A DNA stretch of 26,231 bases from Candidatus Bipolaricaulia bacterium (GTDB lineage Bacteria; Bipolaricaulota; Bipolaricaulia; JBHIAT01): assembly GCA_046758705.1 (NCBI GenBank), contig JBHIAT010000033.1:1-26231 (forward strand), in the 5' to 3' direction. Under the pieces are notes generated by a model. The model was not told the origin of the DNA, did not search any database, and worked only from the letters and a program-made list of their open reading frames with translations. The position numbers and the translations under genes are program-made. This document shows positions 8,868-17,817 of this stretch, piece after piece (position 1 is the stretch's first letter; every line of letters begins with the position of its first letter).

Positions 8868-8894
8868 TCAAATTGTTTTGATCTCGACCCGCTT
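8868..8894 (-). other. Orphaned original 3' end of atpI (KRVEIKTI-stop) displaced by the IS630 insertion
   Basis: Joining 10145 to 8894 on the minus strand gives CCG CTG AAG CGG GTC GAG ATC AAA ACA ATT TGA in the atpI frame, ending directly before the atpK RBS. Confidence 0.8.
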
Positions 8895-10144
8895 ATGAAC
8901 ATTAAGAAATTAAATAGGTAACAATCCCACATAACGCAGCAAATCTGGTGAACCACACCGAAACTGGTCTAAGAAAGCCGCCACCCGCTGCTTCAGCTCC
9001 GGCCAGTCATCACTCTGCCGATGGAGATGCAAAATATCCTGGCTAAGCCAGCGCCACAGCTTCTCAATCGGGTTGCACCAAGACGCATAGGTGGGCAAAC
9101 AGAGAATTTGGATCGGCAGTTCGTCAGGCACGGCCTTCGCCGATGGCTCAGTCGGCCAATTCGGTGGCCGATAGAACGGATAGGGCCATGCCTGCGACTG
9201 AAGTCGAGCCAGCACGTCCGGATGGAAATGCACCGGCCAATTATCCTGGGTGGCGTAAATGATCTCCGCGTGCGGATAGACCGCACGAATATCCGCATAG
9301 AAGGCCGACAGTTGCTGGGTAGAGATCTTGCTACGTTGCCGATAGATCACCTTCCCGGTGCACGCATCCAGCGCAGCGACGATCCGAAACGCGGTATTGG
9401 TTCGGTAGCTCTGATACGCCAGCGGTTGCCGACGACCCGTGGCCTCATAGGCTGAAGCGAGGCGGGGTTGTCGATAGTAGGTCAGTTCATCCACGTACAA
9501 AAATACATAGCGCTCCGGATCGTATTTCGCCCGCAGACGCGCCAACTCGATCAGACTCAGTTTGTCGTCGTAGTGACGATCTGGACTATGGATGTAGGCC
9601 CGCCCCCGTTTGTAGCTGATGCCCAGCCGCTTCAGAAGCTGGGAGAGTCCTCCAGCGGTCGTGATGCGGAGCCAATCGCAGACCTGGCCCAGACGGTCCA
9701 ATGTCCAGCGACTCTGGAGGAAGCCGAACTGTGCCGGTTCGCGACGGACGACGTGCAAGATGGCCTCACGGGCCTGTTCATCCGTGTCGTGTTGAGGGGG
9801 AAAATGCGGGCTTGCGCCCCCGTCCTGGTTTGAGCAAGAGCCCTGGGAATCCTTCAGTCTGCCAGCGATGCACCCATTGGTAGATCGTGTCCGGTTGGCG
9901 TCGTTTGAGCAGTCCATGGTGAGCCACCTGACGCCCTGACCGACCATCGGCGATCTTGAGGATGGCGGCGGCCCGCTCTCGCACATGGGGCTTCTCGTGA
10001 GCATCACGTGCTGCCTCCAGTTCACGGCGTTGTTCCTCGGTGAGGATGATTTCCAGGGGTTTGGGCATGGTGTGATGTGGTTCCTCCCTTCTTTACCCAT
10101 GGATTTCACCCTCTATGTTACTCGTTTATTTCGTTAAAGTCCAT
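8895..10144 (-). mobile_element. IS630-family insertion sequence, 1250 bp
   Basis: Imperfect 20-bp terminal inverted repeats: ATGAACATTAAGAAATTAAA (8895-8914) versus the reverse complement of 10125-10144, ATGGACTTTAACGAAATAAA (15/20). Encodes an HTH + DDE transposase. Excision restores atpI. Confidence 0.9.
8910..10068 (-). CDS. IS630 transposase encoded as two overlapping ORFs (OrfA 9778-10068, HTH; OrfB, DDE) joined by a +1 frame change, about 385 aa fused
   Basis: OrfA has RA.AIL...G.S, T...W..RW...G..GL and GRKP motifs. OrfB has WT, L..LG.SYKR, YVDE, QDN...H and LPTYASWCNPIE.LW (D-D-E triad). The frames overlap at TTTTCCCCC. Confidence 0.88.
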
Positions 10145-11965
10145 CAGCGGCCGATACGGCTTCCCTCCCGCTTCCAAAAACTGTTTGAAGAACTCGACGA
10201 AGTGGAGCCGGGCCGCCTGGATCGTCGGATCGAAGATCGCCAGCACGAAGTTGAGACTGTGGAACAGGATCCCGATCAGGATCGCGGTAGCAACGTTACC
10301 GGTGATGCCGCCCAGCTCGTTGGCCGTCTCGGCCAGCAGCAGCGAGGCGGTTCCGATGGCCATGATCCGCGCGTAGGAGAGGATGTTGCCGATCGAGCTG
10401 AAGATCTCCAGGACGCCCATGATCCCGCCCCCGTAGATCAGCAGGGGGATCCCGATGATCAGTAGCCCGATCCCGAGGTTGCGCATTCCGTCGGGCACGA
10501 AGCCGATCATCTCGCCCACCAGCAGCCCGATCCCGATCAACAGGACGAGCGTGCTCGACTTCTCGACCAGATGCCTTCGTTCCCGGTTTCTGAGCGCGTT
10601 GACCGCGCCGAGCGCTAGGCCTAACAGGACATGGGCCACCCCCAGGGCGATGGCGAACGTCAGGAACTGCATCCGGTGCTCTGCCCGGCTGAAGTGGGGC
10701 CACGGAGCCCCGAACCCGAAGTACTCCCCGAACCCGATCCCGAATGCCACCGTCACCGCACCTGCCTGGAGCAAGATGGTCCCCGCGTCTTTGATCCGCT
10801 TGCGGTCCCGGAACCGGCGACGCAGGTAGAGCGCCAGGGTGACCATCCCGGCCCCGTATCCGAAGTCCCCGGCCATGATCCCGAAGAACAGCGGGAAGAA
10901 CGTGCTCACCAGCGGGGTCGGATCGATCGTGTTGTAGATCGGCCGGGGGAGGATCGACAGCAACGTCTCATAGGGCGCTGCCCATCGGTTGTTCTGGAAA
11001 GCGACTGGGATCGCTTCCCGGGGAACATGCCCGCGGTGTTCGCGGATGACGATCCCGGTGAACTCCTCGGTCAGCGTTTTCTTCAAGGATTTTAGCTCAT
11101 CGGTTGGGACCCAGCCGGAGATGATCACCGTGTAGCGGGTGTAGCCGAACCGTTGGATGGCGTCGATCTGGGCGAGCCGGTTCTCCAGCGTCCAGGTGAG
11201 TTGGCTGAGCCGGTCCGACCACTCTTTGGAAAATTCCTTCAACTGGCGGTCGATCTCAGCCAGCCGATCCGGGAGCTCCTCCAGCTCCCGCTTGATCTGC
11301 GCGATTGCATCGATGAACTTGGCTTCTGAGAGGTGAGGGGGGAAGGTCAGCAGGTGGAACCCTGTCTCTAAAAGATAAGCTCTCACCGGACCGGCATACT
11401 CCGGATCGACGGCGACCAGGACGGCCCAGCGCCCATCGCTGAGCTTGTGGTGGCCGAGCTGGAACCTGTCGGGGAGGTGTCGGTTCAACACCGCCTCGAC
11501 CTCCGCGATCGGCCCTCGCGCCTCGGTGATCAGCGGAATGACCTGAGTGTCGGTCAGATCGAGATCGGCGATGATGGTTTCAACGGCGGTGATCACCTCG
11601 GTGATCTGTTGGTCGGCCGCGTATCGGCCGGCCAGCTCGTCCCGCTCAATCACCAGCGTTCCAACGATCCGTTCCAGCTCCTCCACCTGCTCTGAAGACA
11701 GGGATTTGCCCTCCGGCGACTCGCTCTCCACCCGGCTCTCGCTGCCGCCGACTTCAGAGCAGATCTCCAGCAGCCCTCTGGCTCGGACCCGCAGGTTCTC
11801 CACCTGTCTGCGATCCTCTGGGAGATCGGGGGCTTCAGGCCCCTCAAGCCCTTCGATCTCGATCGGTTCGATATGGAGCACGCTAAGCTCTTGGAGCCGT
11901 TCCACCAACCGATCCCGTTGGTCCTGGATGGCGATCAGGTAGAGCTTGGTCATCGGTCTCAGCAT
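10118..11965 (-). CDS. atpI: A/V-type ATP synthase subunit I/a (ATG at 11965; last 8 codons supplied by the IS630 end)
   Basis: GWVP, P Y..IDPTP, FFG.M.GD.GYG, LSYARIMAIG (essential Arg) and RLHFVEFF..F..GG..Y.P motifs. TGATG overlap with the atpH stop, GGAGG RBS upstream. Confidence 0.96.
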   Translation of the reverse strand: MLRPMTKLYLIAIQDQRDRLVERLQELSVLHIEPIEIEGLEGPEAPDLPEDRRQVENLRVRARGLLEICSEVGGSESRVESESPEGKSLSSEQVEELERIVGTLVIERDELAGRYAADQQITEVITAVETIIADLDLTDTQVIPLITEARGPIAEVEAVLNRHLPDRFQLGHHKLSDGRWAVLVAVDPEYAGPVRAYLLETGFHLLTFPPHLSEAKFIDAIAQIKRELEELPDRLAEIDRQLKEFSKEWSDRLSQLTWTLENRLAQIDAIQRFGYTRYTVIISGWVPTDELKSLKKTLTEEFTGIVIREHRGHVPREAIPVAFQNNRWAAPYETLLSILPRPIYNTIDPTPLVSTFFPLFFGIMAGDFGYGAGMVTLALYLRRRFRDRKRIKDAGTILLQAGAVTVAFGIGFGEYFGFGAPWPHFSRAEHRMQFLTFAIALGVAHVLLGLALGAVNALRNRERRHLVEKSSTLVLLIGIGLLVGEMIGFVPDGMRNLGIGLLIIGIPLLIYGGGIMGVLEIFSSIGNILSYARIMAIGTASLLLAETANELGGITGNVATAILIGILFHSLNFVLAIFDPTIQAARLHFVEFFKQFLEAGGKPYRPLMDFNEINE

Positions 11966-12330
11966 CAAGAACCTCCGAGGAGTTCCTTATAGAGCTGGTC
12001 GATAAGCGCTTTCTGCCGCTTGGTCGCCAGCTTCCGGAGCTGGTTTGCCTGGGTTTCACCGGCGGCGACGATCTGTTTGGCTTCGGCCTCAGCGGCGCGC
12101 CGTGCCTCGTCACGCTCCGCCTCGATCCGTTCTCGAACCTCCGCCTCCAACTGCTTGCGCAGTTCCCGGGCGTTTTGCTGAGCTGCTGCAATGATCTGCT
12201 CAGCCTGCGCTCGACTCTGTCGGAGCTTCTCCTCGATCTCCTTCTCTTTGCGTTGGATCTCGATCAGCTCTTTGAGGTGCGCTTCAGGGGTCCGCTCGTC
12301 CTGAGCGATCTCCGGGTCTTTGTCTTTCAT
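11965..12330 (-). CDS. atpH: A/V-type ATP synthase peripheral stalk subunit H/G
   Basis: 121-aa Ala/Glu/Arg-rich coiled coil, first gene of the operon, AGGTGGAG RBS. Matches the Thermus G-I-L-E-X-F-A-B-D order. Confidence 0.8.
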   Translation of the reverse strand: MKDKDPEIAQDERTPEAHLKELIEIQRKEKEIEEKLRQSRAQAEQIIAAAQQNARELRKQLEAEVRERIEAERDEARRAAEAEAKQIVAAGETQANQLRKLATKRQKALIDQLYKELLGGS

Positions 12331-12384
12331 GATGACGGCTCCACCTAACCTTAACCTGACATAACTCGGAGTTAACGAAAATCC

Positions 12385-12440
12385 TGACGCGCCTAAGCCC
12401 CCTGCTTTCTGCTTTTAAGCATGAAGATACAGGCGCGTCA
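12385..12440. repeat. Left-end stem-loop: perfect 10-bp inverted repeat enclosing a decayed subterminal hairpin
   Basis: TGACGCGCCT (12385-12394) / AGGCGCGTCA (12431-12440). Inside are a tandem CTGCTTT duplication (12402-12415) and GAAG where the right end has GGGG. Confidence 0.85.
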
Positions 12441-12474
12441 CCGTATTATTATATAGTCAATAGTAACATAGGAG

Positions 12475-12502
12475 TTGACAACCTTCCATCCTATGGTATA
12501 GA
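12475..12502 (+). promoter_or_regulatory. Putative sigma70 promoter of tnpB (probably leaderless transcript)
   Basis: Perfect TTGACA (12475-12480), 16-nt spacer, TGG-TATAGA extended -10 (12497-12502). ATGs follow at 12508, 12511 and 12514 with no Shine-Dalgarno. Confidence 0.6.
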
Positions 12503-13022
12503 TATAGATGATGATGATCAAGACCTTGAAATACCGGCTCTATCCAACCCAACAACAAATCGAAATCTTTCAACACTGGCTTGATATCTGTAGAGAGATC
12601 TACAACGCGGGTCTGCAAGAGCGGCGCACCGCCTGGGAGCGACTTGGCCGTTCAGTCAGTCTCTCTGCTCAAAAAGCCCAACTTCCTGGGTTGAAGCAGG
12701 ATATCCCGGAGGTCGCTTCAGTGCATTCCCAAGTGCTCCAAGACGTGTTGTTGCGGTTGGATAAGGCGTTCAAGGCATTCTACCGTCGCTGTCACAACGG
12801 AGACAAGCCCGGCTATCCTCGCTTCAAGAGCGGCAACCGTTACCACTCCTTCACCTTTCCCCAATGGAGTAAGGGGGCTCAGTTTCAGGGCCAGAATGGC
12901 AAGCTGTGGCTCTCCAAGATTGGCGCGATCAAGATCAAGCTGCATCGTCCGATGGAAGGCCGAATCAAGACAGTGACCATCGTGCGCAAGGCGGGCCGTT
13001 GGTATGCTTGCTTCTCGGTTGA

Positions 13023-13251
13023 CTCACCTTTTGCACCTCATTATGATCTGCTTTATATCGACATCAACGTCGCCTCCATCTACCGCCATGAGTTGCGGTC
13101 TTCGCGATGGCTCGACCTTCACTCACGGCTACTGGCTTCGTCACTCCCTGCGGGAGTTCTATACATCAGCTCGAAGAGCGACGAAACATCGTAGCCGGGA
13201 GTGAAGCGGAGTGCAACTCCCGGCGATGTAGCAAGGGGTGCAAAAGATGTG
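13023..13251. mobile_element. 229-bp non-autonomous MITE with 17-bp imperfect TIRs and TTGA target-site duplication
   Basis: CTCACCTTTTGCACCTC (13023-13039) versus the reverse complement of 13235-13251, CACATCTTTTGCACCCC (14/17). TTGA at 13019-13022 and 13252-13255 (can also be read as a 5-bp GTTGA duplication). Confidence 0.88.
13085..13224. repeat. Inverted doublet of GTAG-type REP-like palindromes (REPIN/BIME-like) inside the MITE
   Basis: Plus unit: GTAG-CCGGGAGT-13nt-ACTCCCGG (13191-13223). Minus unit: GTAG-CCGTGAGT-27nt-ACTCATGG (13132-13086). Cross-pairing 13117-13132/13191-13206 (15/16), 13137-13146/13176-13185 (9/10) and 13085-13096/13213-13224 (10/12). Confidence 0.7.
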
Positions 13252-13759
13252 TTGAGATAGACAAGCCTGAGCCGTTGCCTAAGACGGGCAAAGACGTTGG
13301 GATTGACGTGGGTGTGGAGAGCTTCGCGACCTTGAGCGATGGAACACAGATTGAGAATCCCCAGTGGTATCACAAGGCTGAACGACGGCTGGCTAAAGCC
13401 CAACGACGAGTATCTAACCGCAAGCCGGAGAGTCACCGGTGCCACAAGGCGGTACGGTTGCTTCAAAGAGCGCATGAGAAGGTTCAGAATCAGCGTAAGG
13501 ACTTTCACCACAAGCTCAGTTGGAAGCTGGTCAATGAGAACGATGCCATATACTATGAGGATTTGAACATCCAGGACATGGTAAAGAATCGCCGTCTCGC
13601 TAAGAGCATATCTGATGCTGGCTGGGGCCAGTTCCTGCGATTCATCTGCTATAAAGCGGAAGAAGCTGGTAGGGATGCAGTTGCAGTGCCGCCCCAGTGG
13701 ACGAGCCAGAAATGCTCGAGTTGCGAGGAGACAGTGGCAAAGAGCCTTTCCCAGCGATG

Positions 13760-13931
13760 GCACAGGTGTCCACATTGTGGGCTGGGGTTGCATCGAGATC
13801 ACAATGCGGCGCTGAATATCCAACGGCTCGGACGGAGCCTTCAGGGAGTCCCGGCAATGGTCGGGGCGATGAACTGAGAAGCCCCTGAATTGATTCATGG
13901 GGAGTCGTCACTATAACAAAGAGTGGTCTGG
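13760..13931 (+). ncRNA. Predicted TnpB omega-RNA (reRNA): scaffold ending at the element right end (13911) plus guide from flanking DNA (about 13912-13931); 5' limit approximate
   Basis: Established TnpB biology (the scaffold overlaps the tnpB 3' end and right end, and the guide is the adjacent flank) applied to the right end identified here. Confidence 0.55.
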
Positions 13932-13938
13932 GTCTCAA
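13910..13938 (-). promoter_or_regulatory. Putative native sigma70 promoter of the ATP synthase operon, now separated from it by the tnpB element
   Basis: Minus strand reads TTGAGA (13938-13933), 17 nt, TATAGT (13915-13910) with a TGn extension. In the reconstructed empty allele the -10 ends 44 nt upstream of the atpH ATG. Confidence 0.65.
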
Positions 13939-13959
13939 ACCTTCAGAGGGATTCCCGGA

Positions 13960-15291
13960 TCAGGTGGGGAACGACCGGGCCAGGATCTCGGCCAGCGTCG
14001 GCCGACCGATCTCCTGGAGTTCATAGCGGATTCGGGTCACCGGACGATCGAACCGGATCAACCGCCTCAGGTCGATCGGCGTCGCGATCAGGATCGCATC
14101 GCATTCGGTCCGTTGGATCGTCGCTTCGAGATCTTGGATCTGCTCATCGCCGTAGCCCATTGCCGGAATCAGGTTTCCGATATGGGGATACCGGTCGTAG
14201 ATCTCAGCGATCGAGTTGACGGCGAACGGTCGGGGGTCGACCAGCTCTCGAGTACCGAACCGTTCGGCGGCGATCGTTCCGGCGCCGTAGGCCATTTCGC
14301 CGTGGGTGAGCGTCGGCCCGTCCTCGATCACCAGCACCCGCTTCCCCTCGATCACCTGGGGCTCATCCACAAAGATCGGCGACGCCGCTTCAACGATGAT
14401 CGCATCGGGGTTGATCCGCCGAACGTTCACCCGAACTTGATCGATCGCTTGGCGGTCGGCGGTGTCGATCTTGTTGATCACCACTACATCGGCAAGTCTC
14501 AGGTTTACGTTGCCCGGATAGTAGCTGAGCTCATCGCCCGGCCGGTGCGGGTCGGCGACGACGATCGCCAGATCGGAGCGGTAGAAGGGGAGATCGTTGT
14601 TCCCCCCGTCCCAGACGATCACGTCGGCCTCTGCTTCCGCCTGTCTCAGGATCTTCTCGTAATCGATCCCGGCGTAGACGAGGCTTCCCCGGTCGAGGTG
14701 GGGCTCGTATTCCTCGCGTTCCTCGATCGTGCACCCATACCGGTCGAGATCTTCATAGTTTTGAAACCGTTGTACCACCTGGTCGGTGAGGGTCCCGTAG
14801 GGCATCGGGTGGCGGACGATCGCCACCTGTTTTCCCCGTTCCTTAAGGAGATCGGCCACCCGGCGGGTCGTCTGGCTCTTCCCTGCGCCGGTGCGCACCG
14901 CGGTCACGGTGATCACCGGTTTTTTCGAATCGAGCTGCGTGGCATCGACCCCCATGAGCCGGAAGTCAGCCCCGGCGGCGAGCACACGGGCAGCGTGATC
15001 CATGACATACTGATTCGAGACGTCGCTGTAGGCGAAGACGACCTCATCGATCTGCTCGTCTCGGATCAGCGCTTCCAGTTTTGTCTCGGGTTCAATGGGG
15101 ATCCCGTCCGGGTAGAGATCCCCGGCGAGTTCGGGCGGATAGCGGCGTCCTTCGATATGTGGGATCTGAGTCGCGGTGAACGCGACCACCCGGTAGGCGT
15201 CGTTGTCACGGAAGCCGACGTTGAAGTTGTGGAAATCCCGGCCGGCGGCGCCCATAATGAGCACCCGCCTGACTCCATTGTTTGTTGGCAT
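13960..15291 (-). CDS. COG2403 P-loop enzyme (usually annotated cyclic 2,3-diphosphoglycerate synthase/GTPase); likely arginine synthetase ArcE family
   Basis: GAAGRDFHNFN, VVAFTATQIP.I.GR.YP..LAG, AVRTGAGKSQ (P-loop), RHPMPYG, TIEEREEYE, WDGGNND, EDGPTLTHG and PAMGY motifs. Confidence 0.8.
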   Translation of the reverse strand: MPTNNGVRRVLIMGAAGRDFHNFNVGFRDNDAYRVVAFTATQIPHIEGRRYPPELAGDLYPDGIPIEPETKLEALIRDEQIDEVVFAYSDVSNQYVMDHAARVLAAGADFRLMGVDATQLDSKKPVITVTAVRTGAGKSQTTRRVADLLKERGKQVAIVRHPMPYGTLTDQVVQRFQNYEDLDRYGCTIEEREEYEPHLDRGSLVYAGIDYEKILRQAEAEADVIVWDGGNNDLPFYRSDLAIVVADPHRPGDELSYYPGNVNLRLADVVVINKIDTADRQAIDQVRVNVRRINPDAIIVEAASPIFVDEPQVIEGKRVLVIEDGPTLTHGEMAYGAGTIAAERFGTRELVDPRPFAVNSIAEIYDRYPHIGNLIPAMGYGDEQIQDLEATIQRTECDAILIATPIDLRRLIRFDRPVTRIRYELQEIGRPTLAEILARSFPT

Positions 15292-15399: not shown

Positions 15400-17817
15400 A
15401 TGAAGGAGCTTGCCCCTGAGGAGTTGAAACGGAGCTACGATCCCGATTTGTTCGGGTTTGAAACGACCGAGGAGGTGGAGCCTTCCAACGAGATCATCGG
15501 CCAGGAACGTGCGGTGGAGGCGCTCAAACTCGGTTTGGGGATCAAGAACTATCGCTACAACATCTATGTGGCCGGCGGGGCGGGGACCGGGAAGAATTCG
15601 ACCGTACGTCGGTTTTTGAAGCAAATCAGCGTCAACGAGCCGACACCACCCGACCTCTGCTACGTCTACAACTTCGATGACCCTTATCAACCGAGGTACC
15701 TTCAGCTACCCCCGGGCCAGGGGTGCCAGTTCCAGGATGAGCTGCAACAGCTGGTCGAGCGGCTCCAAGAGGAGATCCCTGAGGTCTTCGAATCCGACGA
15801 GTACCAGACGCGCAAGAAGGAGATCGACGAGCAATTTAATCAGCAGAAGACCGAGGTCTTCAGCAAGGTGGAGACGACCGCAGACGAGCGGGGGTTCATG
15901 CTGCAACGCACCCCATTCGGAATCAACACCGTACCGGTGAAGGCCGACGGGAAACCGTTGAGCCAGGAGGAGTTCAGGCGACTGGGCGACGAGCATCAAG
16001 CCGAGTTAAGACAGAGGCAGGAAGAACTCCAGGAGATGATCCAAGAGGCGATCCGGGAGGTTGGCCACATCGAGGAGGAACAGACCAAGGCGGTGAGGGA
16101 GCTCGACCGGCAGGCGACCGAGGTCAGCATCGGCCCTAAGATCGAAGAGCTCGAACAGAAATACAGCGACCACCCCAAGATCATCCAGCACCTGAATGCG
16201 GTTCGGGAGGACATCCTTAACAACCTCGACAGCTTTCACGACAGTGACGGGGAAGGTCAGCAGAACCCGTTCCAGATGCTGATGAGGCAGGCCAGCCTTG
16301 ATCGTTACGATGTCAATGTGGTAGTCGACCACAGCGAAACGGAGGGGGCACCGGTCATCGTCCAGGACAGCGCCACCTTCGGGAATATCTTTGGGGCGGT
16401 CGAGCGGCGTGTTCAGTTCGGTGCGATGACCACCGACTTCAACATGATCAGACCGGGAGCGCTACACCGGGCGAACGGCGGCTATCTGGTCATCAACGTC
16501 GACAACCTGTTCCGCTACGGCGGGCTATCCTGGGAAGCGTTGAAGGTCGCGATCAAATGTCAGTTAATCCGTATTGAGGATCCCGCCCACATGATGGGAT
16601 ACACCGCCACCGAGGGGTTGCGTCCCGAGCCGATCCCAATGGACGTGAAGATCATCCTCGTCGGAAGCTCCCTGCTCTACGAGCTCCTCCAGTTTTACGA
16701 CGAGGACTTCGGCAAGCTGTTCAACGTGAAGAGTGATTTCGATAACGAGATCGATCGGGATGAGGAGTATATCACCAAGTTCGGGGCGTTCATCCGGGCG
16801 CGATGTGAGGAAGAGGACGATCTGATGCCATTCCACAAGACCGGTGTGGCGCAGGTGCTCGAGCACTCCTCGCGGATCGCCGGGGATCAACGGAAGCTCA
16901 CCGGTCGGTTCAGCGACATGATGGCGATCATCCGGGAGGCGAGCTACTGGGCGCGTCAGGCCGGTTCGGACTCGGTCAAGGCCGAACATGTCAAGAAGGC
17001 GATCGACGAGCGGACCTATCGCCACAACCGGGTCGAGGAGAAGATTCAGGAGATGATCGAGCGAGACGAACTGCTCGTCGATACCGATGGTGAGGTCGTC
17101 GGTCAGGTGAACGGGCTTTCCGTCTATCAACTCGGGGATTTCAGCTTCGGCCGGCCGTCCCGGATCACCGCCAACGCCTACGCCGGCAAGGGCGGTGTGG
17201 TGAACATCGAACGCGAGTCGGAACTCTCCGGCAGCCTCCACACCAAGGGCTTGATGATCCTGAAGGGGTACTTGGCCGAGCGGTTCGCTCAGGATAAACC
17301 GCTGTCGCTGGCGGGGAGCATCACCTTCGAGCAGAGCTATGGGATGGTGGACGGAGACAGCGCGTCGAGCACCGAGCTGTACGCGCTGATCTCGGCGCTC
17401 TCCGGCGTTCCGCTGCAGCAAGGGATCGCCGTCACCGGTTCGGTCAGCCAGAAGGGGAGGATCCAGCCGATCGGCGGGGTCAACGAGAAGATCGAAGGTT
17501 TCTACAAGGTCTGCAAGGCGAAAGGGCTCTCCGGGAAGCAAGGGGTACTCATCCCAACCGGGAACGTGGAGCACCTGATGCTCGACGACGAGATGATCGA
17601 GGCAGTTCGAGATGAGAAATTCCATATCTGGGCGGTGGAGACGGTTGAGGAAGGGATCGAGCTGCTCACCGGCCAGCCTGCCGGAGCCTTGGTGAACGGG
17701 GAGTTTGAGGAAGGGACCATCTTCTACAAGGTCGACCAACGGATCCGGGAGATCAACGAGACCCTGAACAAAGCCTCCAAAACCGAGAAGACTGACGAGG
17801 ACGAGGACGAAGAATAA
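15400..17817 (+). CDS. Lon-like S16 protease, LonC type (AAA-like domain with coiled-coil insertions)
   Basis: IGQ.RA, G..GTGK, CYVYNF..P, PGALH.ANGGYL (Walker B degenerate: YLVINV), GQVNGL, P.RITA, FEQSY..VDGDSASS (catalytic Ser) and IGGVNEKIEGF (Lys). GGAGG RBS. Confidence 0.9.
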   Translation: MKELAPEELKRSYDPDLFGFETTEEVEPSNEIIGQERAVEALKLGLGIKNYRYNIYVAGGAGTGKNSTVRRFLKQISVNEPTPPDLCYVYNFDDPYQPRYLQLPPGQGCQFQDELQQLVERLQEEIPEVFESDEYQTRKKEIDEQFNQQKTEVFSKVETTADERGFMLQRTPFGINTVPVKADGKPLSQEEFRRLGDEHQAELRQRQEELQEMIQEAIREVGHIEEEQTKAVRELDRQATEVSIGPKIEELEQKYSDHPKIIQHLNAVREDILNNLDSFHDSDGEGQQNPFQMLMRQASLDRYDVNVVVDHSETEGAPVIVQDSATFGNIFGAVERRVQFGAMTTDFNMIRPGALHRANGGYLVINVDNLFRYGGLSWEALKVAIKCQLIRIEDPAHMMGYTATEGLRPEPIPMDVKIILVGSSLLYELLQFYDEDFGKLFNVKSDFDNEIDRDEEYITKFGAFIRARCEEEDDLMPFHKTGVAQVLEHSSRIAGDQRKLTGRFSDMMAIIREASYWARQAGSDSVKAEHVKKAIDERTYRHNRVEEKIQEMIERDELLVDTDGEVVGQVNGLSVYQLGDFSFGRPSRITANAYAGKGGVVNIERESELSGSLHTKGLMILKGYLAERFAQDKPLSLAGSITFEQSYGMVDGDSASSTELYALISALSGVPLQQGIAVTGSVSQKGRIQPIGGVNEKIEGFYKVCKAKGLSGKQGVLIPTGNVEHLMLDDEMIEAVRDEKFHIWAVETVEEGIELLTGQPAGALVNGEFEEGTIFYKVDQRIREINETLNKASKTEKTDEDEDEE

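Follow-up and report, generated by a model that had tools for sequence, protein, structure and literature searches.

We propose that a tnpB-only element was inserted by a Y1 transposase acting in trans inside the −10 hexamer of a promoter-like motif ahead of a V/A-type ATPase operon, that the motif was kept at the right end of the element, that the insertion was most likely tolerated, and that tnpB was later inactivated by a MITE; we give this reading a probability of about three in four. The element would be a non-autonomous, IS1341-like one, mobilised by a Y1 transposase encoded elsewhere, and it would have landed 3′ of TTAAC in an otherwise 94-nt spacer between a GTPase-domain gene and the operon. 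The insertion point separates the fourth from the fifth base of the −10 hexamer of a strong sigma-70-like motif, and the motif survives whole at the right-end junction owing to the ...GTCAC terminus of the element. It now stands 1.58 kb away from the operon and points into the element, in antisense orientation to tnpB and its omega-RNA; transcription of the operon probably still passes through the element, starting either at the junction site or upstream. In the strain analysed here a 229-bp MITE later inactivated tnpB, and the likeliest state of the locus is that of a tolerated, decaying insertion rather than of an active conflict.

The window, by which we mean the whole stretch of 26,231 nucleotides that was analysed, is contig C33 of a bacterial assembly of 3.7 Mb in 319 contigs that is 93.9% complete with an estimated contamination of 4.7%, and the closest kin of this genome among species representatives share only its class. 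Genome-wide there are 20 matches to sigma-70 region 2 and none to TBP, so bacterial promoter logic is valid here; the same counts rule out an archaeal origin, under which sigma-70 logic would be void. The stretch is contained in four public runs of a single study, labelled hydrothermal vent metagenome; a search for RNA runs that contain it returned none. The features on which the argument turns are as follows.

11965–12330, minus strand: first gene of the ATPase operon, subunit-H-like (weak matches to V-type subunit H models, below cut-off).
12372–12376, plus strand: TTAAC, the left-flank target motif and presumed TAM, directly 5′ of the left end.
12377–13911, plus strand: tnpB-only element of the IS200/IS605 family, 1,535 bp with the nested MITE included (ends set by other copies; Pfam domains).
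12475–12502, plus strand: tnpB's own promoter-like site, TTGACA-16-TATAGA, preceded by TG (relaxed scan, 10/12; conserved in the C49 left-end fragment).
12508–13022, plus strand: 5′ part of tnpB with the HTH domain (HTH_OrfB_IS605, PF12323, E=6.9e-14); its ORF, 12508–13194, runs into the MITE and stops.
13023–13251, no strand assigned: 229-bp MITE inside tnpB, with the 4-bp duplication TTGA at 13019–13022 and 13252–13255.
13256–13877, plus strand: 3′ part of tnpB with RuvC and Zn-ribbon (OrfB_IS605, PF01385, E=3e-31; Cas12f1-like_TNB, PF07282, E=1.5e-22).
13797–13911, plus strand: right end, presumed 3′ part of the omega-RNA scaffold, kept in solo and full copies (terminal hairpin 13882–13902).
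13910–13938, minus strand: sigma-70-like site TTGAGA-17-TGnTATAGT, spanning the right-end junction (scan score 10/12, TG-extended).
13912–13931, plus strand: right flank, the predicted guide and target, as expected from the family mechanism.
13960–15291, minus strand: gene upstream of the operon with a CobW/HypB-like GTPase domain (domain match).

The element and its ends

An earlier note on this DNA placed a tnpB element at 12377–13911; these limits are borne out by other copies in the genome, and Pfam domains assign the element to the IS200/IS605 family. Seven right-end copies were found elsewhere: five carry the identical terminal 16-mer CATGGGGAGTCGTCAC (C14, C24, C159, C297 and C46), in one the end is the same but for 1 nt that is deleted (C274), and one has a different end (C19). 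The sequences of the copies part company immediately past ...TCAC, which sets the right boundary at 13911. The left end at 12377 is matched by a single other copy, a truncated fragment on C49, which begins at the same base and follows TTAGC. With a related subfamily on C14 and C23, whose left end is different and whose boundaries are less certain, TTAGC again stands where the similarity starts. The left-flank motif given in the earlier note is thus correct for the window, and from TTAAC here and TTAGC at the junctions on C49, C14 and C23 we infer a flanking motif TTARC, on the basis of four junctions in one genome, two of which have uncertain boundaries.

Direct repeats sought at both ends of the element revealed no target-site duplication; the insertion thus lies 3′ of a short conserved motif without duplication of the target, as is characteristic of IS200/IS605 elements. 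No tnpA is present within 12377–13911, and the element is accordingly not of the autonomous form. Since all six Y1_Tnp matches of the genome lie outside the element, the transposase would have acted in trans; candidate TnpA genes are on C27, C207 and C257. The TNB domain of TnpB has 23 matches in the genome.

On folding, the last 90 nt of the element form three hairpins, and eight of the 28 predicted pairs at the right end are maintained through changes on both sides among six sequences. This covariation is supportive, not conclusive, because the compared copies are kin. The ends are structured in the manner of the family, with a fixed ...TCAC cut motif and hairpin pairing kept by compensatory changes, and among the TnpB loci of the genome that were examined ten others also finish in a hairpin followed by ...TCAC. 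It is an unremarkable copy of a family that is well represented in this genome. A GAAGC-hairpin-...TCAC terminus is common to many right ends in the genome, and solo right-end fragments occur on C24, C159, C297 and C46. Beyond this genome, the exact 20-nt right-end stretch is absent from the contigs of species-representative genomes, and the same terminus is shared by two of 80 relative TnpB loci (L156 and L117), the former being a Ktedonobacteraceae locus that contains both tnpA and tnpB. A search of 11800–14300 against Rfam with E up to 1 gave no matches, which places the omega-RNA and the MITE outside the curated Rfam families.

A nested MITE splits tnpB

The TnpB domain set, consisting of the N-terminal HTH, the RuvC-like OrfB_IS605 domain and the Zn-ribbon TNB domain, is complete but distributed over two ORFs, 12508–13194 and 13107–13877. 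The intact 378-aa TnpB that had been described from the sequence has the right length, in that a 378-aa frame is regained when 233 bp (229 bp plus the 4-bp duplication) are removed by script; it is not intact in the window's strain, where this same insertion splits the frame. As read from the DNA, TnpB cannot be made in that strain, because the MITE splits tnpB.

The inserted sequence has the properties of a MITE: terminal inverted repeats that match at 13 of 15 positions, a target duplication, multiple copies and no ORF. There are three complete copies, one in the window and the others at C97:2683–2918 (97%) and C190:1953–2183 (98%), and the target duplications of the three are TTGA, CTGA and TAAA. 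Two further copies are partial: C162:1–55 is cut by the contig end, and C6:31191–31323 comprises a 136-nt core only, 83% conserved and lacking inverted repeats. The MITE folds into a single long hairpin (z-scores −5.3 and −6.2). Our search for its parent IS returned none.

The 3′ half of tnpB aligns with the ISDra2 TnpB (8bf8) at E=3.9e-40, and three acidic residues are aligned. These are the D of GIDVG, the E of YYEDL and the D of RDHNAA, and they correspond to residues 191, 278 and 361 of 8bf8_A, which we take to be the catalytic RuvC Asp-Glu-Asp. The closest paralogue in the genome, on C14, is frameshifted. Among species representatives, the nearest TnpB relatives reach at most 59% identity over a 208-aa query and come from Ktedonobacterales and other Chloroflexota MAGs.

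The promoter-like site at the right-end junction

What is the basis for regarding the right-end junction as part of a promoter? Four sites were found by the scan of 11900–14100, where shuffled sequences predict 0.7, and the site at 13938–13910 tops them. Its −10 hexamer occupies 13915–13910, and the junction at 13911/13912 separates TATA from GT. Read on the minus strand, these last two bases derive from the terminal ...GTCAC of the element or, in the empty configuration, from GTTAAC; because GTCAC and GTTAAC both supply them, the hexamer is the same with and without the element. In the empty state, as reconstructed from the element boundaries, the site lies 44 nt from the ATG at 12330 with a GGTGGAG ribosome-binding site between them. 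Three claims of the earlier note hold up in this analysis, namely that the junction falls inside a strong sigma-70-like −10 (10/12 and best in the region), that the element end regenerates this hexamer, and that 44 nt separate the motif from the first ATG of the operon, a distance verified by counting.

The hexamers of the motif stand ahead of the first gene, in the orientation of the operon and at a spacing within 16–18 nt, and the motif is of a kind that is rare by chance. Sites of the same quality with TG number 164 genome-wide, or about 0.002 expected per 94-nt spacer on one strand. Among 10/12 sites, 190 of 488 lie outside long open frames, that is, in 7% of the genome, and the excess of high-scoring sites outside open frames is 5- to 8-fold. 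From the enrichment of the 10/12 sites we conclude that the organism evidently uses canonical promoters, and we put at roughly two in three the odds that the minus-strand motif at 13938–13910 is a working promoter.

The strongest competitor of our reading is that the motif is a chance match or a part of the terminator of the upstream gene, that the operon is transcribed from elsewhere, and that the element sits in a neutral spacer. A weak terminator-like stem at 13941–13925 does overlap the −35, and the upstream gene, which shares the strand of the operon, ends at 13960. However, terminator-like stems occur in this region at chance frequency (two found, 2.0 expected from shuffles), the motif is the best of the region and TG-extended at the low expectation given above, the enrichment of such sites outside open frames argues for function, and a distance of 44 nt up to the ATG, in a stretch that includes GGTGGAG, is typical. 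We consider this explanation unlikely, while regarding it as the one that deserves the most weight after our own.

If the motif is a promoter, how is the operon reached? Read-through into the operon is plausible, because the element contains only one minus-strand terminator-like stem, a weak one at 12690–12677. The left end does not offer a comparable outward promoter; the best candidate there scores 9/12 with a 19-nt spacer. Silencing of tnpB by antisense transcription from the host promoter is possible, as pure inference. Were the motif a real promoter, the locus would exemplify an IS200/IS605 insertion that owes its tolerance to a transposon end able to rebuild the −10 box, and a strong host promoter would fire antisense into tnpB and the omega-RNA.

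Guide and donor joint

In Meers et al. (10.1101/2023.03.14.532601), excision by TnpA is described as leaving a scarless donor joint, made up of the TAM and the right flank, to which TnpB is directed by the element's own guide, forcing recopying; a further source on the TnpB mechanism is Karvelis et al. (PMC8612924). By analogy, TTAAC followed by 13912–13931 is the expected donor-joint target of the window element. Allowing at most one mismatch in 16 nt, the guide matches only its own site in the genome, and there it is preceded by CGTCAC and not by TTARC. The proposal that the predicted guide targets the empty promoter allele is sound insofar as this is the target to be expected. It is generic to all TnpB elements, as Meers et al. 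show, and carries nothing specific to this locus; being true of every such element, the match between guide and empty site is uninformative about this promoter.

Two strains carry the insertion

Three of the four runs (X1–X3) match the window exactly. The fourth, X4, represents a diverged strain, and its contigs bridge both junctions: record 27 covers the left junction (12336–12625, 1 mismatch) and record 29 the right junction (13828–14028, 12 mismatches). The insertion is thus common to both strains. A third X4 contig, record 28, skips 13018–13250, so that the MITE is absent from it; this contig, for which there is no link to the locus, parts from the window's sequence at 13391. Nothing in X4 covers 13446–13736.

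The empty allele was sought in related genomes and in the metagenomes, as the earlier note had suggested, and did not appear in 40 relatives, 80 loci or the contigs of the four runs. With the left flank as the query, 0 of 40 relatives matched, and the joint 12376–13912 is absent from the contigs of the four DNA runs, contigs being a form of data that drops rare variants.

A comparison of the window with X4 counts 2 mismatches over 552 positions in the element's left and middle parts and 50 over 993 in the host flanks (Fisher p=6e-8), or about 99.6% identity in these parts of the element and about 95% in the flanking host genes, in a comparison where record 27 alone is provably at this locus. 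The right-end part shows 4 differences in 84 positions. Simple vertical inheritance does not predict such a contrast, which counts against our reading; a filled allele that passed from strain to strain, or recombination affecting the flanks, could account for it.

Alternative readings and known systems

The contrast between element and flanks bears on a second alternative, according to which the locus is the site of an active conflict: TnpB and its omega-RNA would cut alleles in which the promoter has been restored, thus enforcing the insertion, and the host promoter would silence the element by antisense RNA. The cleavage mechanism is established for the family (Meers et al., 10.1101/2023.03.14.532601), conservation extends to the catalytic residues and to the right-end scaffold, the MITE is missing from one X4 contig, and a near-identical left and middle of the element beside flanks that differ by about 5% fits the spread of a filled allele. 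Yet in the window's strain the MITE interrupts tnpB, the closest paralogue, on C14, has a frameshift, and the X4 contig without the MITE, which departs from the window's sequence at 13391, is not tied to the locus. Furthermore, the guide-target relation is generic, and where the promoter is regenerated, enforcing the insertion does not in itself set the nuclease against the host. We regard an active conflict as improbable.

A more elaborate scenario, and in our view slightly more doubtful still, is that the filled allele spread between diverged vent strains after their separation, through recombination assisted by the homing of TnpB to TTAAC together with the promoter sequence. An insertion that rebuilds the −10 would thereby escape counter-selection, capture the host promoter as antisense control and leave a guide that matches a promoter core. 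Were this so, it would be a starting point for the evolution of promoter-targeting TnpB derivatives. Knowledge of TnpB is left unchanged by all this, the relation of guide to target being standard in the family and the copy in this genome defunct. The locus could nonetheless be used to seek TnpB-driven retention or spread of insertions in nature, since two strains carry the element.

The window element resembles ISDra2 of Deinococcus radiodurans (PDB 8bf8, 8ex9, 8exa, 8h1j) in its domain order, in the three RuvC acidic residues, in a structured right end that abuts the presumed guide, and in its insertion 3′ of a 5-nt motif without target duplication. It departs from ISDra2 in being tnpB-only and IS1341-like, without tnpA, in the interruption of its gene by a MITE, and in its left-flank motif, which is TTAAC or TTAGC. 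In ISDra2 this motif is TTGAT.

Similarly, with the Geobacillus ISGst elements encoding TnpB and IscB, as presented by Meers et al. (10.1101/2023.03.14.532601), the window element would share a donor joint that is the target of its own guide, a flanking motif read by both TnpA and TnpB, and a different motif at the right end (GTCAC in the window) that should prevent self-targeting; unlike those elements, the window copy is non-autonomous, broken and known from sequence alone. A guide complementary to a promoter region overlapping the −10 is likewise a property of the TldR proteins, described by Wiegand et al. (PMC10705468), in which TldRs are without RuvC activity and transposon ends and target a distant, TAM-flanked promoter. 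In the window element, by contrast, the complementary promoter is its own flank and has no TAM in the filled state. A TldR-like, nuclease-dead repressor is ruled out for the window TnpB because the acidic triad is conserved and both transposon ends are present.

Finally, insertions of IS elements into promoters offer a further comparison. As in such cases, the operon has been separated from a promoter-like site and a −10 has been re-formed at the junction. The window element is unlike them in supplying just two bases (GT, on the minus strand) and in having a left end without a comparable outward promoter, the best score there being 9/12.

The ATPase operon and neighbouring genes

The operon beside the element is on the minus strand, with the gene order H-like, I, K, E, C, F, A, B, D. 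It had been described as an ATP synthase operon beginning with atpH. An operon is indeed present, but its type is V/A, and the scores of the supposed atpH against subunit-H models stay under the cut-offs. Nor is it clearly the sole rotary ATPase of the genome, because there is a second V-type gene set, with A, B and D on C171:525–4388 (59, 53 and 30% identity) and I and K on C7:41283–43128. This second set weakens the claim that a core energy operon is at stake and speaks for tolerance of the insertion. It could in principle belong to another organism, given the estimated contamination of 4.7%. An F-type gamma subunit was not found in the 93.9%-complete assembly.

Relatives of the upstream GTPase-domain gene were located at 80 metagenome loci (at most 71% identity), and ATPase or Lon genes stand beside none of them. 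A further mobile element is present in the operon itself: an IS630-family element at about 8893–10147, between the genes for ATPase subunits I and K, overlaps the last nine or so codons of subunit I and encodes a 399-aa transposase with a DDE_3 domain (8910–10109, minus strand). Copies of it occur elsewhere in the genome on C127 (90% identity) and C167 (82%). On the other side of the locus, a Lon-like protease of 805 aa with LonB-type AAA, LonC helical and Lon_C domains is encoded at 15400–17817 on the plus strand, divergent from the upstream GTPase-domain gene.
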